Positions 5,987-61,353 of a stretch of DNA of 64,000 bases are shown here, one piece after another. The DNA comes from Scenedesmus sp. PABB004 (Eukaryota): positions 1,240,001 through 1,304,000 of the forward strand of contig JABVCE010000003.1 of the NCBI GenBank assembly GCA_014905635.1. Reading direction: 5' to 3'. Below the pieces are notes generated by a model. The model was not told the origin of the DNA, did no database searches, and was given only the letters and a program-made list of their open reading frames with translations. Each line of letters opens with the position of its first letter. The first letter of the stretch is position 1. A program made the position numbers and the translations under genes.

Positions 5987-6800
5987 ATGGCCGGCGCCAG
6001 CGCCGCGCCGCGGCTGGAGCAGCGGACGAGCATCGTGTCCAGCCTGGACGACTACCGCATCATCTCCAACATCGACACCAGCGGCGTTCCCGACGCGCTG
6101 AAGAAGGACTGCATCCTCTTTTACACGCCCGACACCGAGCCGCTGGCGCGCAAGATCGCGGCGCAGGGCGACCACGTGCAGCTGGGCAACATACGCTGGA
6201 AGTGAGCGCGCCCGCCGGCGGGCCCGGCGGGCCCGCGGCACGCCGGCCTGCCGGGCGGCGGCCGGCGCTGCTGCCGCTGCTGCCGCCGCCGCTGTCGCCG
6301 CTGCCACCTCCGCTGCCGTGCAGCCCAGCTGTGGCGGCGGTGACGGCGGCCGCGCGACGTCGGGCCGGCGCGGCAGCGCGCTGATCGCAGCCGCGGCCGC
6401 GGCGCGGCGGCAGCAGCGGCGGTGGGCGGGCGGGGCCGCTGCCGCTGCTGCTGCTAGGGTTGTGGTCCGCCGCCCACACGCGCCCCGCCCCCGCGGCGGC
6501 GGCGCGGCGCAGGTGCTTCCCCGACGGCTTCCCCGACCTGTTTGTGCACAAGGCGACCGACATCCGCAACCGCCACGTCGGCTTCCTCGCCTCGTTCCAC
6601 GACCCCGCCCGCATCTTTGAGCAGATCAGCATAATCTACGCCCTGCCCCGCCTCTTCATCGGGAGCTTCACGCTCGTGCTGCCCTTCTTCCCCACCGGCA
6701 CCGCCGAGCGTGTGCGCGGCGGCGCGCGGTCACGGCGGGTCGTGGCGGCGGCGGCCGGCGCGCGCCGCGGGCGCCGGCGCCGGCCCACGCGGCGCGTCCG

Positions 6801-6831
<31 letters not shown>

Positions 6832-8513
6832 GCAGGTCGAGACGGAGGGTGACGTCGCGACCGCGTTCACGCTCGCGCGCATCCTCTCCAACATCCCGCC
6901 CAGCCGCGGCGGCCCGACGAGCATCGTGATCTTTGACATCCACGCCCTGCAGGCAAGCTGCGCGCGGCGGGAGCAGGGAGGGCGGCACGGCGCAGCGCCG
7001 CAGCGCGGGCGCGGGCGCGGGGCCGGGCCGGCAGCGCGCGGCGCACGGCGCGCGCACCGCCGCCGACGCCTGCCCCGCCTCCGCGTGCGCGTGGCTTGCA
7101 GGAGCGCTTCTACTTTGGCGACGGCGTGCTGCCGCTGTTTGAGTCGGGAATCCCGCTGCTGCTGGAGCGGCTCAAGGCGCTGCCAGACCAGGACAAGGCG
7201 CGCCGCACCCGCCGCACCCGCGCCCGCACCCGCCGCCGCGCCCTCGCCCTCGCCCCCGCCCTCGCGCCGCCGCCGCCGCTCACGCCCCGCGCCGCGCTGT
7301 GCCCACGCGGCCGCAGGTGACGATCGCGTACCCCGACGAGGGCGCGTGGAAGCGCTTCCACTACCAGTTCCGTGACGAGGGATACCCGGAGGTCATCTGC
7401 ACCAAGGTCCGCGACGGAGCAAAGCGCATCGTGCGGCTCAAGGTGACGCGCGGCACGGGGGCGCGCGGCGGCGGCGAGAGCGGCGGGGCAGGGGGCGGCG
7501 GGAGGGGGCGGGCGCGCGCGCGGCGCGGACGCGGGGCCACCGACGCGGGGCCGCCGGCGCCGGCGGGCGCGGCGCCCGCAGGAGGGCGAGCCACAGGACC
7601 GGCACGTCGTGATCGTGGATGACCTGGTGCAGAGCGGCGGCACGCTCATAGAGTGCCACGCGCTGCTCAGCAGCCTCGGCGCCAAGCACGGTGCGCGCGC
7701 GGCGGCGCGGCCGCGGGCGCGTGCGACACACAGCCAGCGGCGCCAGCGACAGGCGGCAGCGGCGCCAGGTGCAGGCGGTGCCAGGCGGAAGCGACGGGCA
7801 GCAGGCAGCGCCAGGCGGTATGTCAGGTCTGCTCGCCGCCCCTCACGGGGCGCCGCGGTGCCTGCAGACTGTTACACCCCTGGCACAGCACAGCAGCCCC
7901 GCGCCGGCGCCGCGCCCGCCGTTTTGGCGGGCGTGACGCCGCGCCGCGGGGCCCCGGTGCGCCGCGCTCTTCGCCGCTGCGGGCAGCGGCGCCGGCCCCC
8001 CAGGGGCGGCGCCGCCCGCCGTGCCCGCAGCAGCAGCTCCCGCACACATCCCGCGCTCCCCGCACCGCGCCAGCGCCGACCGCCGCGCGGGCACCACGTG
8101 CCCGCTGCTCCGCACCCACCGCCCCGCCCCACCCCACCGCCCCACCGCCCCGCCGCGCCCTCTCGGCCAGTGAGCGCGTACGTCACGCACGGCGTGTTCC
8201 CCAACGGCAGCTGGAACAAGTTCAAGGCCGACGGCGGCGGTGCGTGCGGGGGGCAGCGCGCTCGCCGCACCGCGCCGCGCCGCGCCGGCGCTCACGGCCG
8301 GCCGCCGCGCCGCGCCGCGCCGCGCCGCGCCGCGCCGCACCGCGCCGCGCCGCGCCGCGCCGCGCCGCCGCAGAGGGCGCGGCGGCGACGCTGGGCTTCC
8401 GCTATTTCTGGCTGACCGACAGCTGCCCCCAGACCGTGGCGGACGTCGCGGAGCGGCAGCCGTTTGAGGTGCTCACGCTCGCCGGGCCCATCGCGCAGGC
8501 GCTGCAGATCTGA
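5987..8513 (+). CDS. PRS4: Ribose-phosphate pyrophosphokinase (plant class II, PRS3/PRS4-like), multi-exon
   Basis: Spliced exons give [68 protein letters not shown] and AYVTHGVFP. Stop TGA at 8511-8513. Confidence 0.9.
7808..8051 (+). ncRNA. Intronic box H/ACA snoRNA candidate, three-hairpin, U19/snR191-like (predicted LSU helix 69 pseudouridine guide)
   Basis: Lies in the 480-nt PRS intron 7691-8170. Stems GCCAGG/CCTGGC and GGTCTGC/GCAGACT; pocket GUCA + GUUAC; H box ACAGCA at 7885-7890, 14 nt below the upper stem; final stem GTGCG/CGCAC followed by ACA at 8046-8048. Confidence 0.7.
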
Positions 8514-8891
8514 CCTGCATCTGCAGCGCCCGCCGCCGCCGCGGCGGCGAGCGCTCCGCGCGCCCAGAGGGCGCGTCGCGGCGCGGTCGCACCGCGCCGC
8601 GCGCGTCGGCGCCGCTGGCGGCTGGCCAGCGGCGCCGCGCGGCAGGCGGCAGCGACGTGCGTGATCGGGGCGCGGGCGTGGGGTGTACAAACAGGAGATG
8701 GTTCCCACAAGCACTGCCGTGTCCGGGGGCACGCGGGGTCTTGCAGAGCAGAAGCGCTGCAACCGGCAAGCGTCCGTCGGCGGCGCATGAGATCACGTCG
8801 CCCCCCTGGCCAGTGCAGCGTTTCGTGCCGCGTGCCGTTCCCGCGCAGCCGGAGAGAACCGGACGCTGCCGCACGAGCGCGCCGCAGCAGC

Positions 8892-19285: not shown

Positions 19286-19364
<79 letters not shown>

Positions 19365-20721
19365 AACATCTGCAGCTGGCGCGGCTGCAGCAGGCCCCTG
19401 CCCGCGAGCGCCTGCTGCCGCTCCGCGTCCGGCTCGGGGCCGCCGACGTCCACCGGCAGCGGCGCGATGCGGCGCAGCGTGCTGCGCGTGGCGCTGCCGC
19501 CCGCCTCGGGCCCGCCACCGGCGGCAGCCGCCTCCACTGCTGCCTCAGCCGCCAGCTCGCCGCTGCTGCGCCGCACCAGCCGGCTGCCGCCCGCCGCGCG
19601 GTCGCCGGCACCTGCAGCGCCAGCCCCCCCACTGACGGAGCTGCAGTGGGAACGCACATCTGCAGGCGAGGCGGTCGCACCCGCGCTGGGGCGCCGTGCC
19701 GGGTCGGCCAGCGGCTGCTGGCCGAGCCGCACGCTTGGCGACGCGCCGGCGCCACCGCAGCTGTGCACCACCGCCGAGCCAGACGGGGCGGCGGCGGCCA
19801 CGGCGGCAGGGGGGGCGCCGTGCTCGCTCGAGGGCGCCGGCACTGCGGGCGGCTGCGCCGCCGAGCCGCTGCGCTGCTCGGTGGAGGCTGGCTGCTGCTG
19901 CAGCGCCGCCTCCTGCAGTGCCGGCTGCTGGTGCACGGGCGGCACTGCTGAAGACCCTTCCAGTCGCGGCGCGGGCGCCTGTGCCCCAAGCTGCGGCAGC
20001 AGCAGGTCCTGCTGGTGCTGCTGGTGCTGCTGGTGCTGCTGCTGCAGCGGGGGCGCCTGCTGCTGCGCTGGGGCTGGCTGCGCCTGGGCTGGCGGCTGCG
20101 ACAGCGTGCGCTCGCTCGCCTGGAGAGCAACGCCTGCCGCGCATGGGGCAGCGCCAGGCGCCGTCGCGTTCGCGACCGGCGGCCGCGCCTGGCACGCCTG
20201 CAGCAGCCCCAGCAGCTGCCCCGGGGGCGCCTGGCCCTGCGGCGCGCCGTGCTGCAGCTGGAACACCACCTGGCCGCTGCTGTCTCTGCTCACCACAACC
20301 GGCAGCTCGATGGCCGTGCCGTTAGGCGCCGTGAACGTCACGCGCACGGCGTCAGCCGCCGCCGGCGCGGCCGGCGCCGCTGCGGCCGGCGGCAGCGGTG
20401 CCGCCGCGCCGAGCGCATCGGCCGGCACGGGCGCACCAGGCCCCAGATGCCGCGCCTGCCGCGCCTGCTGCTGCGCCTGCAGCGCTGGCGCTGGTGCCTG
20501 GTGCTGCTGCACGCCCGGCCCCTGCTGCGCCACCTCGCCCTGCTGCTGAGGGGTCGCCTGCGGGTGCGGCAGGCTGTCGCCTGAGGGCGGTCCTGCCTGC
20601 TGGTGGGCACTGCCAGGCCGCTGGCCCCACGGCTGCTGTGCCAGATGGCCGCCAGAGGGCGGCCCGGTCGGCTGCAGGGGGGGGCCGGGCGGCCCACAGC
20701 CGCCCGGCAGCGGCTGGCCCC

Positions 20722-21165: not shown

Positions 21166-21205
<40 letters not shown>

Positions 21206-22471
21206 CGGCTGGAGCCACGGCGGCTGCTGCCACGGCTGGAGCCACGGTGGCTGCTGCCACTGCTGCCACTGCTGCTGCGGCGGCCAGTGCTGCGGCTGTT
21301 GCTGCGGCAGCCATTGCGGCTGCTGCTGCCAACCCACCGGCTGCTCCTGCAGCCCGTGGTGGCCATAAAACGGCTGCTGCTGCTGCTGCTGCTGAGCGGG
21401 GGCCAGCTGCGGCCCCTGCATGCCCAGCTGCGCCGCGGCGCCCGGGTGCGGCAGCGGCGACAGCTTGCGCCCCGCGTCGGCGCCAAAGCCGCAGCTGCTG
21501 CTGCTGCCGCACAGCGCGCCAGCCTGCTGGCCGCCCGCGTCGAGCGGCGGCGGCGGCATGGCGTTCTGCAGCTGCCGCAGCGGCACCTGGCCGCCCGCAA
21601 GCGCCTGGTCGGTGGCATCCGCCACCGCGCTGTCCAGGCCGCCGTGCGCGCCGCCGTCCAGCTCCAGCGCCAGCAGCTGCTGCGGCGGCGCCAGCTGCTG
21701 CGGCTGCGACGGCGGCGCCCAGGCGCCCCCTGCTTGCCACGGCGGCGGCGGCGCGCCGCCCGCGCAGCCGAGCGCGCGGGGCGCGGGCGCGCCGCCGTCG
21801 CCGCCGGCGGGCTCGCCCGCCGGCGGCCCTTGCGGCAGCCCCAGCGGCTTGCCCGGCGGCGAGGGGGCTTCTGGGGCGATGAGGTGGTACAGGAAGTGCA
21901 GCTTGGGCGGGCAGCCAAAGATCTTGTGGATGTCAGCAAGCTGCGGCGGGCGGGGCGGCGCAGCGCGGCGCGGGCATCAGCAGGGCGCGTCAGCAGGGCG
22001 GGTGCGTGCGGCCGGGCCGGGGCCACCCGCGCGGCGCGCTGCCGCCAGCCACCGCCGGCCGCTGCCAGGCGGCGCGTCTGGCAGGCGCTGCCGCGCCGGC
22101 GCGCGCGTGTGCACCGGCAGCGTGGGGTCGAACGTCGGGCCCCACGACACGGGCGTGAACTTTAGGTGGCCGTGCACTGAGATGTCCGGATACAGGATCA
22201 CCTGGTGCCCCGGCAGGCCCAGCTGGCGCAGCACGATGCCCGCCACGCTCGCGAGCTGCCGCGCCGTGCTGCGGGCGGCAGCGGCGGCGGTTGCGCCAGG
22301 GGCGTGGCGGGCCCCTGCGCGCAGCGCGCCCCGGCGTCCGCGCGTCGCGCCGCACCTGATCTCGGCGGCCACCCACTTGTGGCGCTTGCCCAGCTGGCCG
22401 ACGAGCTTGCGCGTGTGCGCGTCGCGCGCCGCCACCTGTATCTCCACCTTGACGGCCTCCCCGCCCTCCAT
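15143..22471 (-). CDS. Very large (>2200 aa) low-complexity protein with an N-terminal TKI1/Cramped-like domain
   Basis: ATG at 22471, two short exons, a ~6-kb exon (21941-15916) and a last exon. The N-terminal ~105 aa are globular; the rest is Q/A/G/P-rich. The 3' end (TAG 15145-15143) assumes a 1-nt indel at 15318-15322; otherwise the stop is at 14926. Confidence 0.6.
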
Positions 22472-23428: not shown

Positions 23429-25816
23429 TCACGCTGGCCCTGCTGCCGCGGGCACAGACGGCGTCGCGGCGGGCGCGCCCGCGGCGGGCAGGCCTGCAGC
23501 CTCAGTCGTGCCCCCGACCTGCCCCGCGGGCTGCGCCTGCTGCGCCTGCTGTGCCGCCTGCACGGGCTGCGCCGGCTGTGCCTGCTGCGCCGGCTGTGCC
23601 TGCTGCGCCGCCTGCGCCGGCTGCGCCTGCTGCGCCGCCTGCGCCGGCTGTGTGACGAGGATGACGACCGGCTGCATCGGCGGTGGCAGGCACATGGGCG
23701 CCGGCGCAAAGCCCTGCAGCGACTGGCCGGGCATGCCCACGCCCACTGGCGGCCAGCCGGGGCCCGGCGCCGTCACGGCCGCGCCGCCCACGGGCTGCTG
23801 CTGCTGCTGCTCCGCCGCCGCCGCCGCCGCCGCTGACGATGCGGCCGGCTGCTCGCCGCCTTGCTGCCCGGGCGTGCTCGCGGCCGCTGCAGCCCCCAGG
23901 TCGGCTGCGGCCGCTGCGGCCGCATCTGCCGCGCCGGCCCCCGCCGGCGAGACGGCCATGGCCGCCATGCCGTCGCTGTCGGCCGCGGGCGCCGTGCTGG
24001 CCGGCGGCAGCTCCAGCGCGAGCTGCGGCTGCTGCTGCGGCGCCGCCTCGAGCACGGCCGGCGATGGCTCCGCCTGCTGAGCGCCGTCCGCCTGCTGCGA
24101 CTGCTGCGGCGGCTGCGGCTGCGGCTGCGGCTGCGGTTCGCTGGGCGGCGCCGCGGCCGCCTGCGCCTGCTGCTGCGCCTGCTGCTGCGCCTGCTGCTGC
24201 TGCATGTGCAGCTGCTGCTGGTAGTAGAGGTGCTGCTGCTGCATGAACATCTGCTGCTGCTGCTGCATCATCATCAGCGACTGCTGCCAGTGCGCCTGGA
24301 ACGCCTGGAAGCAGGCGGGATCCACGGCGCCCGGCATGCCCCCCGGCATGGCCATCGGCGCCGGGCCGAAAGGCCCGGGCATCATGCCGCCGTAGCCGGC
24401 GGGGCCATAGCCAGGCATGCCCTGCGGCGGCACGCCGGCCAGCGCAAAGCCCGGCGCGCCGGGCGGCCCCCCGCCCAGCAGCGGCGCGGCGCCGCCGGGC
24501 GCCGCGGCGTCGGCCGGGCCAAACTGCTGCTGCTGCTGCATCATGGCCTGCTGCCGCTGCCACTGCGCCCAATTGAAGTGGATGACGGGCGCCATCTGAA
24601 GGCCCGCCATGTGCAGCTGGTCGTACGGCTGCGCCGCGCCGGCGACGCACGGCTGCTGCTGCGCCTGCTGCGCCTGCTGCTGCTGCTGTGCCTGCTGTGC
24701 CTGCTGCGCCTGCTGCGGCTGCGGCTGCGGCTGCGGCTGCTGCTGCGGCTGGAGCTGCTGCGGCTGCAGCTGCTGCGCCGCCGCCGCCGCCTCGGGCGCC
24801 TGGCCCGGCGGCATGGCCGAAAAGCTCGGCATGTACACGCCTGGCTGCATGCCAGCCGCGCCAAAGCCCATGGCGGGCCCCCAGCCGGGCGCCATGCCCT
24901 GCGGCATGCACGGCTGCATCCAGGCGCCGACGCCGCCCAGCGCGCCCGGCGCGGCCGGCACGGAGCTGGGCAAGGCCCCGGAGCCGCTCGCCAGCGGCTG
25001 CATCTGCATTTGCTGCTGCATCTGCTGCATCTGCTGCGTCTGCTGCTGCTGCTGCTGCTGCTGCATCTGCTGCTGCTGCAGCAGCTGCTGCTGGTGGTGC
25101 TGCTGCTGCGGCGGCAGCTGCTGCGACGGCAGCTGCGGTGGCGGCAGCTGCTGCTGCGGCTGCTGCTGCTGTGCCTGCAGGCCGTGCACGTGCTGCAGCA
25201 GCGGGCCCCCCACAGGGATGCCCTCGGCGATGCCGCTCGTCACGACGCCCTGGGACACTGCCGCGGCCGTGCCGGAGGCCTGCGGCTCGGTGCAGGACGA
25301 CTCCGCTACGGCGCGCGGGCGGCGGGCGGCGCGGGGAGGGGGTTGAGCGGCGCGCGCGGCCGTGCGACGGGCGGGCTCGCGCGCGAGCCTGGCGGGCGCT
25401 GCGCCGCGTGGGCGGGCGCTGCCGCCGCACCCATCTCGCCGCGGCCGCCGTCGTCGCACAGCGCGTTGCCCTTGCCCGCCGCGGCGCCGCCGTTGGCCGC
25501 CGCGCCGCCGTTGCGCGAGGCAGCGCGCTTGGATCGCCGCCCGCCCGCCGCCGGCGGCGAGGCGGCCGCCGGCCCCGCCTGCGCGCCAGCCGCCGCGGCG
25601 TCGACCGCCGCGGCCTCTGCTGCCGCCGCAGCAATGTCAATGCCACCGAAGCCGGCCAGCGCCGGCCCAGCCGCGCCGGGGCCGGGGCCGGCGCCGCCGG
25701 GCCAGCCGGCGGCCGCCGCGCCCGTCCCGCAATCGCCGGGCCCGCCGCCGCGCGCCGCGTCGTCCAGCGCCTGCTGCGCCTCGGCCGCGCGGCTCAGGTC
25801 CATGAGCGTCACCGCC

Positions 25817-30165: not shown

Positions 30166-30860
30166 GCTGCGCGCTGTGAGCTGTGTGTACACCACCAAGC
30201 TGCTGTGTTGTCGTCGATGTGCGTTTGTGCGCAGGCGGGTGGCGATGTACAACAAGCTGCAGGACAAGCCAACCTCGTTTGAGGGCTGCAGAGCCCTGGT
30301 AGGGGCAGCCCTCAGGGGCAGCGCGGGTCGCAGGACTGAGCTCGCGGGGCGTGGCGCGCGAGGCTGCGCGAGGCTGCCAGGCCAGTTTTGAGGCGGCGGG
30401 TGGGGAGCGGGGAGGCGGGGGCGCGGTAACGCTGCGTGAGGCTCTGATCGAGGTCAGTGTCGCTGACGGTCGTGCGGGCTGGGGCTGGCGCCGCGACCAG
30501 CGGGCGCACGGCCCGCGTTCCCGAGCGCACGCAGCGGCGCCGCTGCCGCCTGGCTGCGCGGCGGCCCCAGCTGTCGGGCGGCCGGGCCGTGAGCCGGAGC
30601 TGCGGCTCCGGCGCGAGCTGGCGATCTCTGGGGGCGTGCGGGCCAACCGGTGCGGGAGCTGGGCGCGGTGCAAGGGCCTAGCACTGGCCAGCTTCCGAGC
30701 GCCTGCGCCCCTTATCCCGCGGCGGCCGCGCCCGCTCGTTACGCCTCAGCAGCCCGCTGCCCGCCAGCTCCTTGCGCTCTCGCGCTCAGCGGCCCCCGCC
30801 GTTGCGTCCAACCACCAGCACGCGCTGGTGAGGCCCATTGAAGAAGAAGCGAGGAGCAGC

Positions 30861-31655: not shown

Positions 31656-32211
31656 GGACTGCAGAGCCCTGGTAGGGGCAGCGCGGGTCGCAGGACTGTG
31701 CTCGCGGGGCGTGGCGCGCGAGGCTGCCAGGCCAGTTTTGAGGCGGCGGGTGGGGAGCGGGGAGGCGGGGGCGCGGTAACGCTGCGTGAGGCTCTGATCG
31801 AGGTCAGTGTCGCTGACGGTCGTGCGGGCTGGGGCTGGCGCCGCGACCAGCGGGCGCACGGCCCGCGTTCCCGAGCGCACGCAGCGGCGCCGCTGCCGCC
31901 TGGCTGCGCGGCGGCCCCAGCTGTCGGGCGGCCGGGCCGTGAGCCGGAGCTGCGGCTCCGGCGCGAGCTGGCGATCTCTGGGGGCGTGCGGGCCAACCGG
32001 TGCGGGAGCTGGGCGCGGTGCAAGGGCCTAGCACTGGCCAGCTTCCGAGCGCCTGCGCCCCTTATCCCGCGGCGGCCGCGCCCGCTCGTTACGCCTCAGC
32101 AGCCCGCTGCCCGCCAGCTCCTTGCGCTCTCGCGCTCAGCGGCCCCCGCCGTTGCGTCCAACCACCAGCACGCGCTGGTGAGGCCCCATTGAAGAAGAAG
32201 CGAGGAGCAGC

Positions 32212-33006: not shown

Positions 33007-33562
33007 GGACTGCAGAGCCCTGGTAGGGGCAGCGCGGGTCGCAGGACTGTGCTCGCGGGGCGTGGCGCGCGAGGCTGCCAGGCCAGTTTTGAGGCGGCGG
33101 GTGGGGAGCGGGGAGGCGGGGGCGCGGTAACGCTGCGTGAGGCTCTGATCGAGGTCAGTGTCGCTGACGGTCGTGCGGGCCGGGGCTGGCGCCACGACCA
33201 GCGGGCGCACGGCCCGCGTTCCCGAGCGCACGCAGCGGCGCCGCTGCCGCCTGGCTGCGCGGCGGCCCCAGCTGTCGGGCGGCCGGGCCGTGAGCCGGAG
33301 CTGCGGCTCCGGCGCGAGCTGGCGATCTCTGGGGGCGTGCGGGCCAACCGGTGCGGGAGCTGGGCGCGGTGCAAGGGCCTAGCACTGGCCAGCTTCCGAG
33401 CGCCTGCGCCCCTTATCCCGCGGCGGCCGCGCCCGCTCGTTACGCCTCAGCAGCCCGCTGCCCGCCAGCTCCTTGCGCTCTCGCGCTCAGCGGCCCCCGC
33501 CGTTGCGTCCAACCACCAGCACGCGCTGGTGAGGCCCCATTGAAGAAGAAGCGAGGAGCAGC

Positions 33563-50411: not shown

Positions 50412-53108
50412 TCAGTCGAGCCGCTGCGCCGCCTGGCCGCGCGGCACGCGGCGGCGCTTGGGCGCGGGCGCGCCGCCGTCGTCCCCGCTGCCGTCGCCGC
50501 CCTTGACAATGCTGGCGTACAGCACGTGCCGCTCGTCGCCGCGGCGCTCAAACACAATCGTGTCGCCTGGCGCACAGCGCGCGGCACGGCGCGGTGCGAG
50601 TGAGCGTGCGGCGCAGTGCAGGGCGGCGCGCCGCTCACACCGCCGCGGCGGGCGCGCGTGCGAGCGCGGCGCAGCGCGGCGCGGCGCACCGACGTCGACG
50701 CCGTGCGTGCGCACAAAGTCGCGCCAGCCGCTCGTGAGGCGGAGGTGCTTCTGCGCGTTGCACGACACGCCCTCGTACTGCACACGCTGGCGCTGCCCGC
50801 TGACCGGCTCGACGACCCACACGTCCTCCTTCCACAGCTGCTCGTAGCTGCTGCCGGGCTTGCCGCCGCCGGCGGAGGCCGCCGCGCCGTCGCCGCGCGG
50901 CGGCGGGGCGGCGCGGAGGTCGTGGTAGGGCAGCAGGTGCTCCGCCATGGGCTGCGTGATGTTCAGGCGCTTGAGGTACGTCTTGCACGTTATCACGCGC
51001 GCATACCTGTGACGCCAGGCGGCGGGGCGTGGCGAGTGGGCGGCGGCGGCGTGGGTTGGCGGCGGCGCGGGTTGGCGGCGGCGGGGCCGCCGAGCGCAGC
51101 GTGCACGCTCCTCCCGCAGCGCAGCGCGCCCCCCTTCCCCCGCGCTCACCTCGCGACCTCCCCCGGGTTGGAGCTGGGCTGCGCCTGCAGCGCGGCGTCG
51201 CCGCCGTCGCCCTGCGGCGCCGCGCCGAGCGCGAGCGCGGGCCAGCCGCCGCCCGGCTGGCCGGGCGGCAGCGCGCCCCACTGCAGCGCGCTGTAGCAGT
51301 CTGCCGGCATCGCAAACGGCCCGCCGCCCGCGACCGCGGCGGCGGCCGCCGCTGCCGCCGCGGCCGTGGGCGTGCCGGCGTCGTCAAGCTTTGCAAACTG
51401 CAGCGCCGCGTACTGCCGGACGCCGGCCTCGGCCAGCAGCTCCTGGTTGACCTGGCCCAGCAGGCCGTCCAGCGTGGCCAGGCCCGGGAGGCTGGCCACG
51501 GGCGGCCCGGCAAACAGGTCCCCCGGCGCACCGACCGGCGCGCGCGGCGCGCCCAGCGCGCCGACCAGGTGCGGCAGCTCCAGCTGGCGCAGCGCAAAGG
51601 CGGAGGCGTGCCCGCCCGCCGCCGGCTGCGGGGCGGCCGGCAGCGCCTCCGGCTGCTGCGGCTGCTGCTGCTGCTGCGGGACCTGCGGCTGCTGCTGCTG
51701 CTGCTGCTGCTGCACCTGCTGCTGCACCTGCTGCTGCTGCTGCTGCTGCAGCGCGGCGGCAAACGGGTCTGGCTCCCGCTGGCTGAACAGCGCGGCTGCG
51801 GCGGCGGCAGCGCGATAGCTGAACGCAGGCCGCCCGAGGCCCCCGCCGCCGCCCCAGACCGGCGGCAGCGGCTCGTCGCCCGCTGCCGCGGCGGGCACCT
51901 CGCGGCGCGTGAACGGCGTCAGCGGCGACGCCTGCTGCTGCGCCGCCGGCTGCTCCGCCGCCGCCTGCGCCGCCGGCGCCGCCTGCGGCTGCTGCTTGGC
52001 CGCCGCGCTTGCCGGCGCGGGCGCCTGTATGTGTGCCGCGAACGCGGCGAGCTCGCTGGGCTTGATCCCGAGCAGGTCTGAGCTCTGCTCCATGAACGAC
52101 AGGCTCGGCAGCCCGCTCAGCGTGAGTGGAAGGTCCGCGTCCTGCACGCGCGGGGCGCGGCGGCACGAGGTGGGCGGCGCGCGGCGAGCGCGGCGCGGCG
52201 CGCGGGCGGGCACGGCCAGCCACGCGGGCGCGCGTCGCCGCCGTCCAGCTGCCGCGGCGGCGCACCTTGAGGCTGTCCAGCATGCCGAAATCGCGCAGGC
52301 AGGCCCTGAGGCTGCCGCTGCCGAGCTTGCCCGCGCCCGCCGCAGCGGGCGCGGAGGGCAGCGAGCCGGAGCCCGGCGGCAGCGCGAGGTCGGGCAGGCT
52401 GTCGCTGCGCGGCAGCCCCGCGGTGAGCAGCCCGCTCTCCGCGCGCGCCGCCTCGCACAGCAGCGCGTCGGCGAGGCCGCCGCTGCTGCTGCGGCAGATG
52501 CCGCTCGCGAGGCGCAGCGCGGCGCCGCCGGCGCCCGCGCGTACCGCGCCCGCCGCCGCCGCGAGCGCGCGCGCCTGGTGCGTCACGCTGCTGGGGCGCG
52601 AGACCATGCCGCTCGGCGTGGGCAGCAGGCAGGGCGGCGCGCCGCTCGGCGCGCCGCCGCCGAGCTCGAGCGCCGCCTGCGGCGCGTCGGCGCCCTCCTC
52701 CAGCGCCGGCGGTGTCGGCAGCAGCCGCGTCTGCGACAGCGCCGCAAACGCGGTCGCCGCGGCGGGCTCGGGGGCGGCCTCGGGCCCGCGGTGCTGCCCG
52801 CCCGACGACGCGGCGCTGCACGACTGCGCGGCGGCGCCCGCCTGCTGCGGCGGCGCCGCGTGCTCCGCCGCCGACGGCGCCGGTGGCGCCGCCATGCCGT
52901 CGACCAGCGACAGCAGCGCCGCCTGCGCCGCGGGCGCGATGCCCTCCAGGCGGGTGATGCCGTGCACCAGCGCGGCGCGCGCCGCGTCGTTCAGCACGGG
53001 CGCCGCGCCGGCGCCGGCGTCGCCCCCGGCGCGGCGCGCCACGCTCGGCTGGCGGAGCTCCGCCAGCAGCTGCGGGTTGTCCGCAACCGTGAAGGGGCTG
53101 GCGTCCAT
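50412..53108 (-). CDS. B3 DNA-binding domain transcription factor (C-terminal B3), 4 exons
   Basis: KRLNITQPMAEHLLP ... LTSGWRDFVRTHGVDVGDTIVFER matches the B3 consensus (RL.IP...AE..LP; GW..FV....L..GD...F). The N-terminal part is long and disordered. Confidence 0.8.
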
Positions 53109-59577: not shown

Positions 59578-61353
59578 ATGCAGGCGCCGCGGCCCTCGCC
59601 CTGGGCCAACAAGCACGTCCTGCTCACGGGCGGCTCGGAGGGCCTGGGTCTGGCGCTGGCGCGGCAGCTCGTCGCCGGCGGCGCGCGCGTGAGCCTCGTG
59701 GCGCGCACACTCAGCAAGCTCCAGGCCGCGGCCGACGAGGTTGCCGCGGCGGCGGCGGCGGCGGCGCAGCAGCAGCAGGCGCAGCAGCAGGTGCAGCAGC
59801 AGCAGCAGGTGCAGCAGCAGCAGCTGGTGCAGCAGCAGCAGCTGGTGTACGTACACTCTGCGGACGTGACCAAGTTCAACCAGGTGCGGCGCCGGGCACG
59901 GGCAACGTGCAGCTGCGGCCGCAGCCGACAGCCGCACGCCGCCAGCGGCGAGCCCGCCGCCCGCGCCGCCCGCGGCCGCAGGTCGTCGACGCGGTCGCGG
60001 CGGCCGAGGCGGCGCTGGGGCACGTCGACCTGCTGATCTGCTGCGCCGGCGCGGCGGAGCTGGGTGCGGCGCGCACCCGCGGGGCGGGCGGGTCCCGTGG
60101 GCGCCGCGCCGCGCCGCGCCGCCGCGCCACGCGCCGCCCGCGCCGCGCCGCGCGCCCCCAGGCTACTTCCACGAGCTGCCCTGCGAGGTCTTTGAGCGCC
60201 AGGTGTCGCTCAACTACCTGGGCAGCCTGCACGCCGCGCGCGCCGTCTACGCCGGCATGGTCGCCCGCAACGCCGGCCACATCGCGTTTGTGGCGTCGAC
60301 AATGGCGCTCATGGGTGTGCGGCGCGCGCGCGCGTGCGGGGCCCGCAGCGCGCAGCGCGCATCGCAGCAGCCGCTGCGGAGCCGCCGCCTCCGCGGGGCG
60401 CGCCCAGGCCCTGCTGCCGCGCCCGCGCACGCGCCTCGCGCGCCCTCGCGCTCACTCTTTCCCTTTCCCTCTCCGTCCCGCCCTCCCGCCCTCCCGCCCA
60501 GGACTCATCGGATACAGCGCGTACGCACCCAGCAAGTTTGCGGTGCGCGGCCTGGCAGAGTGTCTGCGCAATGAGGTGAGGCGCCGGCGGGGCGGCGCGC
60601 CAGGCGGCAGGCGGCGCGCGGGGCTCACCAACGGCTGCGTGCCCCCGCGCGCGCCCCTCGAGCGCCGCCCCGGCCGCCGACGCCGCCGTCGCCGCCGCCG
60701 TGGCGCCGCGCCGCGCCCCGCCCCCGCGCAGCTGCAGGGCAGCAACGTGCGCGTGAGCATCTCCTACCCTGCCGACATCAACACACCCGGCTACGCCAAG
60801 GAGAATCAGGGCAAGGTGCGGCGGCGGCCGCGCTGCGGCGCTGTCTGGCGCCGGCGCCGGCGCGCGGGCGCGGCCGGCGCGTCGGCGCGCGGCGCGCGGC
60901 CGGCGCGACGACCGCCGCCGCTGCTGCCGCGGCGCGCAGCCGTGGGAGACGGCCAAGGTATCCGAGGGCGTGCGCCTGCAGTCGGCCGACACGGTGCGCG
61001 GCCGCGCGCGCGCGCGCGCCGCGCGCAGCGCGCCCGCAGCCCGCGCCGAGCGCGCGCTGCCGCCGCGCCAGGTCGCGGCGTCGCTGCTGCGGGGCCTCGC
61101 GCGCGGGGACTACCTGCTGCCGAACAGCTCGTTCCTGGTCGGCCTGCTGCAGACGATCACCGCGGGCCTCGTGCCGCGCCGCCTGCTCGCGCTCGCGTGG
61201 GAGGGCCTGCTGGGGCTGCTGTCGCCGCTCATCTGCTGCATCGTCGCGGCGGAGCACGACGGCGTGGCTCGGCGCGGCGCGGCGCGGCGCTTCGCGCGGC
61301 TCTGGGCCGCCGGCCAGGCGGCGGGGCAGGGCGCGCCGCCGCCGCCAGAGTGA
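59578..61353 (+). CDS. KDSR: 3-ketodihydrosphingosine reductase (SDR family)
   Basis: TGGSEGLG, VSLVART, LICCAG, LNYLGS, GYSAYAPSKFAVRGLAECLRNE and YPADINTPGYAKEN, plus a C-terminal hydrophobic segment. Confidence 0.88.

Follow-up and report, generated by a model that had tools for sequence, protein, structure and literature searches.

A candidate U19/snR191-type box H/ACA snoRNA within a PRPP synthetase intron of Scenedesmus sp. PABB004

The window analyzed here is a stretch of 64,000 nucleotides from contig JABVCE010000003.1 of Scenedesmus sp. PABB004, and all positions are counted from its first letter. Positions 7810–8051 of its + strand are predicted to encode an intron-borne box H/ACA snoRNA of approximately 240 nt, belonging to the lineage of U19/SNORA74, snR191 and plant snoR79. 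To this reading, which was made from sequence, a probability of about 0.8 is given. The elements named in the original prediction of this RNA were all recovered on the + strand with unchanged coordinates.

The proposed location within a gene for PRPP synthetase (ribose-phosphate diphosphokinase) was borne out, with a GT...AG intron of 480 nt (7691–8170) flanked by exons that translate. The upstream exon (7583–7690), the peptide of which ends in ...GAKH, possesses a match to Pfam PF00156 that passes the family cut-off (E 1.6e-7), and the downstream exon (8171–8240) has 22 codon-derived residues; a codon is split between them, with G on one side of the junction and TG on the other. Host gene and snoRNA candidate share the + strand, and the RNA is placed centrally, leaving 119 nt of intron on each side. 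The alga is of chlorophycean type, and the named proteins closest to the host protein came from Tetradesmus, Chromochloris and Monoraphidium. The G+C content of the genome is ~79% and that of this intron is 82% (AT map), a background against which the A/T-rich functional motifs of the RNA are conspicuous.

The 5' guide hairpin (7810–7884) was identified by folding, by a hairpin scan and by alignment to SNORA74. It has a lower stem formed by GCCAGG (7810–7815) and CCUGGC (7879–7884) and an upper stem formed by 7826–7832 and 7864–7870, closed by the pair G7826·U7870. Flush with this upper stem are the two arms of the pocket, namely GUCA (7822–7825) and, in the 3' strand of the pocket, GUUAC (7871–7875). 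The H box ACAGCA, of the form ANANNA (7885–7890), follows the upper stem after 14 nt (7871–7884), confirming the canonical spacing claimed for it. Next is an internal hairpin without guide function (7896–7952), a near-continuous helix found by folding and by alignment to SNORA74, which carries the apical motif CGCCGUUUUGGCG (7917–7929) enclosing CCGUUUUGG (7919–7927) and the loop GUUUU (7921–7925). The 3' hairpin (7957–8045), found by folding, has a lower stem of GUGCG and CGCAC (7957–7961/8041–8045), an upper stem (7976–7985/8022–8031) and internal-loop strands of 14 nt (7962–7975) and 9 nt (8032–8040) which are partly self-paired in the minimum-energy fold. It is closed, as had been proposed, by an ACA box (8046–8048) and three further nucleotides, UCC, up to the predicted 3' end (8046–8051 for box and end together). 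The distance from upper stem to ACA is again 14 nt (8032–8045), so that both the 5' and the 3' hairpin lie within the 14–16 nt range for pocket-to-box distance. The order hairpin, ANANNA, hairpin, ACA is present on a single strand, the + strand, and no ANANNA occurs on the minus strand of 7800–8060.

The 5' pocket had been predicted to pair exactly with helix 69 of the LSU rRNA, leaving UA unpaired. GUUAC is the complement of GUAAC 5' of the target U and GUCA that of UGAC 3' of the target UA, and these 5 + 4 Watson–Crick pairs were found in 18 of 19 eukaryote-type LSU rDNA loci, all of them loci of other organisms that were retrieved by the helix-69 motif itself, the site lying at the extreme edge of the 19th. 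This first helix-69 site is presumably that numbered 2258 in yeast, 3741 in human and 2248 in Arabidopsis. Following established H/ACA RNP biology, the PRPP synthetase pre-mRNA would be spliced and the intron then trimmed to the two box-protected ends, with the 5' and 3' hairpins each binding one set of dyskerin (Cbf5), Nop10, Nhp2 and Gar1. The 5' pocket would then be laid on helix 69, GUUAC with GUAAC and GUCA with UGAC, and the unpaired UA would sit at the foot of the upper stem, with the H box 14 nt away; its first U would accordingly be isomerized to pseudouridine. That U19 and snR191 are helix-69 guides, as the original prediction had it, is supported by excerpts of PMC7075261, which describe two separate stem-loops in these RNAs guiding the two conserved helix-69 pseudouridines and call these the most conserved rRNA modifications.

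It is extremely unlikely that the candidate is a product of chance, with three G+C-rich hairpins of a repeat-rich intron resembling a snoRNA in their letters by accident. Strong hairpins do occur throughout the window, as would suit that explanation. ViennaRNA recovered all three hairpins of the candidate (z −3.2 for the 5' and −2.9 for the 3' hairpin folded separately) and gave −160.4 kcal/mol for the whole RNA (z −4.7), but folding energy was discarded as evidence because the 244-nt stretch ranks only 77th of 523 windows in stability and the reverse strand folds equally well. The bare letters GTCA...GTTAC at a spacing of 25–70 nt also occur four times, three of these within a tandem duplication. 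Against chance stands the coincidence of arms, stems, box and spacing. A custom scan of both strands of the 64-kb window returned 141 H/ACA-shaped single hairpins, and just one of these has GUCA and GUUAC flush to the upper stem and 14 nt before an ANANNA. GTCA is found 249 times and GTTAC nine times when both strands are counted (128,000 positions), from which simple arithmetic gives an expectation of ~2e-5 such hairpins. TGTTAC has a single occurrence in the whole window, and when a 65-nt helix-69 segment was scanned with relaxed criteria, the 5' hairpin was still the sole hairpin of the window to place at least nine Watson–Crick pairs around any of its U residues. Chance is further opposed by the GUUUU-capped hairpin, an independent feature of the family placed precisely in the interval that separates the 3' hairpin from the H box: the window has 16 copies of GTTTT, and a perfect stem (8 bp) is capped by the copy at 7921 alone, with 0–1 bp at the other 15.

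An Infernal search of the Rfam families, which had been suggested as a check, agreed with the assignment in part. SNORA74/U19 (RF00090) was the only snoRNA family to match, although far below its gathering score of 71, and no match to snR191 was listed. The 5' hairpin matched SNORA74 at 7810–7894 with 14.0 bits, a result reproduced in further Rfam searches, and the internal hairpin gave a separate match at 7907–7939 (model positions 87–120) with 11.0 bits. The two matches are colinear, with E-values of 0.16 and 1.2 for 271 nt searched against 4227 families. The extra middle hairpin of the original prediction is upheld both by folding (z −5.8) and by a family match of its own. Aligned to the SNORA74 consensus, the RNA has identical pocket letters (UGUCA ... 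UGUUACACC) and an identical CCGUUUUGG loop. Sub-threshold matches are frequent in the window, which would favor chance. A scan of the whole window at E≤10 listed 53 matches, all driven by repeats or low complexity even down to E 1e-9, with SNORA74 and any other H/ACA family absent from those listed, and at gathering thresholds the whole window gave none. For snR191 (RF01263, gathering score 46) no match was listed for the window; its score can be placed at 14 bits or less, since overlapping matches of the same clan that fall under the SNORA74 score stay hidden.

Sequence data from metagenomes allowed comparison with a bona fide snR191-type RNA. A scan of these data with a pattern derived from the Scenedesmus RNA returned eight loci, two of which (L004 and L008) are snR191-type RNA scoring 76.5 bits against the snR191 model. 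These have in common with the window RNA the letters CCAGG.GG..UGUCAGG, CUGUUACACCCCUGG and the CCGUUUUGG loop, a likeness that is partly forced because the search pattern came from the window sequence; among the 20 columns not forced by the pattern, 14 are identical between L004 and the window RNA, which also argues against chance. The outermost pair of the lower stem is changed from G-C to C-G in L004. Overall, the window RNA and snR191, as represented by these two loci, are alike in the letters and geometry of the 5' hairpin, in the position of the H box and in the CCGUUUUGG-capped internal hairpin. They differ in the number of internal hairpins, of which the snR191 consensus has two, within an enclosing stem, and the window RNA one.

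The remaining six metagenomic loci were taken as chance matches, with no Rfam match at E≤1, and a close relative of this alga was not found among the eight. L001, L003 and L005 carry one sequence, which was seen again as L040 and L041 in a scan of viral sequences; eukaryotic rDNA had no matches in the viral sequences. A further locus (L009), with a eukaryote-type helix-69 segment on a 1.16-Mb contig of 70% G+C, was considered as a G+C-rich relative and rejected, since 7300–8520 matched its genome (G001, 6 Mb) only in short stretches of low complexity.

Vertebrate U19/SNORA74 likewise shares with the window RNA the pocket letters of the 5' hairpin and the extra internal hairpin, with its loop, that separates the H box from the 3' hairpin. 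The window RNA, by comparison, has a much higher G+C content, longer stems and a protein-coding host gene. The internal hairpin is a conserved, family-specific element, and the same cap is found in the Rfam consensus of both the vertebrate and the fungal family, in the metagenomic fungal-type RNA, in Ostreococcus tauri and now in an alga of 79% G+C. A more speculative reading, less likely than not, is that the CCGUUUUGG-capped hairpin is an ancient functional element separate from guiding; the RNA would then have been kept in the green lineage as one guide plus this element, with the second guide moved to another snoRNA. Docking of a protein or of the pre-rRNA during the folding of domain IV could be the role of the element. 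When rRNA was searched in a simple way for a partner of the CCGUUUUGG loop, with G-U pairs allowed, only noise was returned.

The 3' hairpin is where the window RNA departs from its better-known relatives. The original prediction held that the 3' pocket does not match the neighboring pseudouridine site, and a relaxed scan indeed found no pairing to the second-site U. Excerpts of PMC7075261 assign both helix-69 sites to U19 through its two stem-loops, whereas the 3' pocket of the window RNA is without such arms. Neither GAGU nor UAGU, the arms for the second site in the snR191 consensus (GAGU and UAGU(UA)), is present in 7953–8051, and a hairpin scan found no second-site guide elsewhere in the 64-kb window. 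The archaeal H/ACA guide sR-h45 of Haloferax volcanii is directed to the equivalent helix-69 pseudouridines and, according to the same excerpts, achieves both modifications with one stem-loop that leaves UNUN unpaired, whereas the arms of the window RNA leave UA only (PMC7075261).

An alternative, which we consider unlikely, is that both pockets of this RNA guide modification, the 3' hairpin having acquired a new, lineage-specific target that could lie, for instance, in an snRNA or in an expansion segment rich in G+C. In favor of this, the canonical 14-nt distance to the ACA box has been kept in this hairpin, which has internal-loop strands of 14 and 9 nt, but in the minimum-energy fold these strands are partly paired to one another. 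Furthermore, no recurrent target of the 3' arms was found in the 19 eukaryote-type rDNA loci, which represent the rRNA of other organisms; scattered matches of 8–9 pairs occurred in four of the 19, at differing places. The O. tauri RNA Ot-HAsno100 is, by eye, similarly without an open second pocket. Read from its arms, a hypothetical target of the 3' pocket would have the form GGAGCUGCU-UN-GGCGAAGAG. Most likely, the 3' hairpin with its ACA serves only RNP assembly and RNA stability, and the second helix-69 site is expected to have its guide on another snoRNA, encoded elsewhere in the genome, as in the Arabidopsis annotation.

In Arabidopsis 25S rRNA, the guide assigned to U2248 (the equivalent of yeast 2258) is snoR79 and that assigned to U2250 is U19 (PMC8351944, Table S2). 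Having the guides for the first and second sites on different RNAs fits the missing second pocket of the window RNA. When the snoR79 hairpin-1 fragment of Brassica rapa from the PMC5122169 supplement was set against 7861–7884, comparison by eye gave identity at 19 of 24 positions, the upper-stem strand GCAGAC among them. The snoR79 hairpin-1 fragment GCAGACUGUUACA..CUGG with its ANANNA box appears to resemble the window RNA, the comparison being made by eye with published entries that lack the 5' strand. In that 2016 survey, snoR79 is recorded in two of 25 species (Arabidopsis thaliana and B. rapa) and in no alga (PMC5122169), and CTGTTACAC and TGTTACACC had no match in the part of its supplements searched. 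A full-text literature search found no article naming snoR79 and none naming SNORA74 together with snR191.

Ot-HAsno100 of O. tauri is a 222-nt RNA with RNA-seq support of 12–46 TPM, identified as SNORA74 by its authors' own Infernal run (PMC7671301, supplement). By eye, it shares with the window RNA the GUCA/GUUAC arms, ~14 nt to an H box (ACAUUA in its case) and, letter for letter, the 13-mer CGCCGUUUUGGCG; its 3' hairpin, like that of the window RNA, lacks second-site arms. It differs in being intergenic with a T-stretch, the window RNA being intronic. The snoGPS targets given for it by the authors omit helix 69, and their table lists it for O. tauri alone, with no record in Chlorophyceae (PMC7671301). 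From a reading of the printed sequences, the closest described green-lineage relatives of the window RNA appear to be the plant snoR79 family and Ot-HAsno100, likewise predicted to guide the first site only. Together with the Arabidopsis assignments, this suggests an early division of the two helix-69 guides between different RNAs in the green lineage.

These relatives also bear on the possibility that the locus is a decaying or silent copy, a former U19-type gene with no stable RNA any more, its lost second pocket being a sign of decay. The absence of the second helix-69 guide and the low Rfam scores would be explained in this way. However, expressed or annotated relatives in the green lineage have the same one-guide layout, and what an H/ACA RNP requires is intact and correctly spaced, namely the two boxes, each at its 14-nt distance, the lower stems of the 5' and 3' hairpins and the perfect arms, with A/T-rich motifs persisting at 79% G+C. 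Decay is accordingly held to be distinctly unlikely, and a functional snoRNA is preferred.

With helix-69 pseudouridines so conserved, a guide for them is expected in every eukaryote, and a U19-type guide in an alga is therefore the annotation of an expected gene of a known kind rather than a discovery. The snR191 RNA was reportedly studied by Badis et al. in 2003, and the work of Chen et al. from 2008 on Chlamydomonas snoRNAs may already contain a Chlamydomonas guide for the first site. What the window RNA offers is a link between vertebrate and fungal U19/snR191, Ot-HAsno100 of O. tauri and snoR79 of Brassicaceae, none of which was followed into Chlorophyceae in the published surveys. At ~79% G+C, the arms, boxes and GUUUU loop stand out as A/T islands, a natural read-out of the letters that are constrained.

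The candidate RNA, a predicted box H/ACA snoRNA at positions 7810–8051 (+ strand), was located within a gene for ribose-phosphate diphosphokinase (PRPP synthetase). Translation identified host exons at 7583–7690 and 8171–8240 (both +), the first matching Pfam PF00156 above its cut-off over 7585–7689 (E 1.6e-7). A protein search with the exon at 6514–6711 returned 646 of 655 candidates at E ≤ 0.001, the best named matches being ribose-phosphate diphosphokinases of Tetradesmus, Chromochloris and Monoraphidium (91–92% identity), which makes a chlorophycean green alga the most likely source. Based on the exon translations and the sequence, the host intron runs on the + strand from GT at 7691 to AG at 8170, with the split codon G/TG giving back the expected valine across it, and the RNA lies mid-intron with 119 nt of flank on each side. 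Two further introns of this gene apparently begin with GC and not GT (6953–6954, CAG/GCAAGC; 7198–7199, AAG/GCGCGC), as judged from the points where exon translations stop and resume.

The original prediction had proposed, from the sequence, a three-hairpin RNA resembling U19 and snR191, and all of the elements it listed were found in place. On the + strand, the 5′ hairpin has a lower stem GCCAGG/CCUGGC (7810–7815/7879–7884), a 5′ arm GUCA (7822–7825), an upper stem (7826–7832/7864–7870) with closing pair G7826·U7870, and a 3′ arm GUUAC (7871–7875), followed by the H box ACAGCA (7885–7890) 14 nt past the upper stem. An almost continuous middle hairpin (7896–7952) with the loop GUUUU (7921–7925) precedes the 3′ hairpin (7957–8045), the upper stem of which (7976–7985/8022–8031) is followed after 14 nt by ACA (8046–8048) and then UCC. 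The boxes fix the RNA to the + strand, because ANANNA is absent from the minus strand of 7800–8060. The 9-mer GCCAGGCGG at 7810–7818 (5′ strand of the lower stem) recurs 30 nt upstream (7780–7788), and the intron around it is made of similar GCCAGG/GCAGG units.

The three hairpins were recovered by ViennaRNA (z −4.7 for the whole RNA; −3.2, −5.8 and −2.9 for the pieces). Stability alone says little in this genome, where G+C is approximately 79% throughout the window, since the stretch ranks 77th of 523 among 244-nt windows and its reverse strand folds equally well. The pocket arms alone also prove nothing, as the window contains four bare GTCA...GTTAC pairs at 25–70 nt spacing, three of which lie in a tandem duplication and lack a hairpin. 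This duplication comprises three near-identical minus-strand copies (30348–30507, 31698–31857, 33049–33208), each of at least 160 nt and carrying one such chance pair, spaced ~1350 bp apart and thus beyond the 500-bp period limit of Tandem Repeats Finder.

The arms in their structural setting are far rarer. A listing of single H/ACA-shaped hairpins from either strand, requiring an upper stem ≥ 6 bp, a lower stem ≥ 5 bp and ANANNA or ACA 14–16 nt past the upper stem, gave 141, of which exactly one has GUCA/GUUAC arms flush to the upper stem. Arithmetic from the observed motif frequencies (GTCA 249 and GTTAC 9 in 128,000 positions) gives an expectation of ~2e-5 arm-bearing hairpins, or ~2e-3 once the roughly one hundred sites that might serve as targets are taken into account. 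When looser criteria were applied across a 65-nt helix-69 segment, the candidate was still the sole hairpin in the window with nine Watson–Crick pairs flanking a U. GTTTT at 7921 caps a perfect 8-bp stem, the other 15 of its 16 occurrences in the window capping 0–1 bp, and the A/T letters of this 82% G+C intron are concentrated in the arms, the boxes and the GUUUU loop.

As had been predicted, the 5′ arms are complementary to GUAAC and UGAC of LSU rRNA helix 69. They leave UA unpaired, placing the target at the first of the two pseudouridine sites (yeast 2258 and 2260). It is established that the helix-69 sequence hardly varies across eukaryotes. The 5 + 4 Watson–Crick pairs were found in 18 of 19 eukaryote-type LSU rDNA fragments, the 19th having the site at its very edge; these are contaminants in prokaryote assemblies, fetched with the helix-69 motif, and the check covers complementarity only. 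The eukaryote-type LSU helix-69 motif is present in no fewer than 23 prokaryote assemblies or MAGs, of which most look like contamination by eukaryotic rDNA and a few are archaeal. One locus (L009, 8001–8028) is a eukaryote-like rRNA stretch embedded in a 1.16-Mb contig (70% G+C; genome size 6 Mb). Upstream of it the sequence departs from rRNA, pointing to a chimeric join or to insertion of a fragment.

Searched against Rfam at gathering thresholds, the window gave no match. In E-value mode over 271 nt, SNORA74 (U19, RF00090) was the only snoRNA family covering the pocket and middle hairpin, with two colinear matches at 7810–7894 (14.0 bits, E 0.16) and 7907–7939 (model positions 87–120; 11.0 bits, E 1.2), both far under the gathering score of 71. 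The first alignment displays the family letters CCAG..GGU.UGUCAG ... UGUUACACC.CUGG.A.AG, and the second the family internal hairpin with the loop CCGUUUUGG. The SNORA74 match was missing from the 53 listed at E ≤ 10 in a window-wide scan, where repeat-driven matches to unrelated families reach E 1e-9. Such low-complexity matches warn against relying on E-values here, and with the sub-gathering scores they mean that Rfam backs the reading as a pre-specified single-family test only, not as a blind discovery. Low-complexity stretches with sub-threshold matches (isrG, several miRNA families, Afu_254) lie at 24994–25200, 19288–19391, 21175–21342, 51655–51752 and 59763–59844.

A scan of metagenome contigs, using a search pattern based on the 5′ hairpin, returned eight loci. 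Two (L004 and L008) hold essentially one RNA, scoring 76.5 bits against snR191 (RF01263; gathering score 46); the other six had no Rfam match at E ≤ 1 and appear to be coding or phage DNA. The 5′ hairpin of L004 agrees with that of the candidate in letters and geometry, and L004 also has an internal hairpin capped by CCGUUUUGG. Excluding pattern-forced columns, 14 of 20 columns in the lower-stem, pocket and H-box blocks are identical in the two RNAs (binomial p 3e-5 to 6e-3, by choice of null). At the outermost lower-stem pair the candidate has G-C, and L004 has C-G.

Human U19 and yeast snR191 use two separate stem-loops, each in the UN configuration, for the two conserved helix-69 pseudouridines, according to PMC7075261. 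In L004 the 3′ hairpin arms GAGU/UAGUUA fit the second site, whereas in the candidate both GAGU and UAGU are absent from the internal-loop strands (+) at 7962–7975 (CCGCGCUCUUCGCC) and 8032–8040 (AGCAGCUCC), bearing out the predicted mismatch to this neighbouring site. In the minimum-energy fold these strands are partly paired to one another. No target for them recurred among the 19 rDNA fragments, and no other hairpin in the window fits as a second-site guide. The 3′ hairpin could conceivably have a lineage-specific target; most likely it does no more than provide the ACA box and a second module for protein binding.

Judged by Rfam thresholds, the candidate falls short of full membership in SNORA74 or snR191, and the second guide is missing, but it has the 5′ guide domain and internal hairpin in common with them. 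The proposed U19/snR191-like guide reading is supported, and the predicted RNA would work like the first-site half of U19/snR191. Following established H/ACA RNP biology, this RNA would be freed from the spliced intron through exonucleolytic trimming and would assemble with Cbf5/dyskerin, Nop10, Nhp2 and Gar1 in two sets; the 5′ pocket would then dock on pre-rRNA helix 69, where Cbf5 would isomerise the first U. When rRNA was searched for a partner to the loop of the conserved internal hairpin, the matches were no more than noise.

Green-lineage relatives were compared by reading published sequences by eye, and the counts carry no aligner score. In Arabidopsis, 25S U2248 (yeast 2258, human 3741) is assigned to snoR79-1/2/3 and U2250 (yeast 2260, human 3743) to U19 (PMC8351944, Table S2), and a land plant therefore has the two sites annotated on separate RNAs. 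A Brassica rapa snoR79 hairpin-1 fragment (PMC5122169 supplement) equals 7861–7884 at 19 of 24 positions, taking in GCAGACUGUUACA and hence an upper-stem strand not dictated by target pairing. The same survey of 25 species recorded snoR79 in two and U19 in seven, and no alga was among these positives (PMC5122169).

The Ostreococcus tauri RNA Ot-HAsno100 (222 nt; RNA-seq 12–46 TPM) was assigned to SNORA74 by Infernal (PMC7671301 supplement), and is recorded in O. tauri only in the authors' table (PMC7671301). By eye, it has GUCA and GUUAC arms adjoining an 11-bp upper stem, ACAUUA after ~14 nt, an internal hairpin holding the 13-mer CGCCGUUUUGGCG (identical to 7917–7929) and a 3′ hairpin without second-site arms. 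Its arms are perfect for helix 69 by eye, though this site is missing from its snoGPS targets (18S.U157, 25S.U758 and U3 are listed; PMC7671301). The first-site-only layout of the candidate resembles that of both plant snoR79 and Ot-HAsno100.
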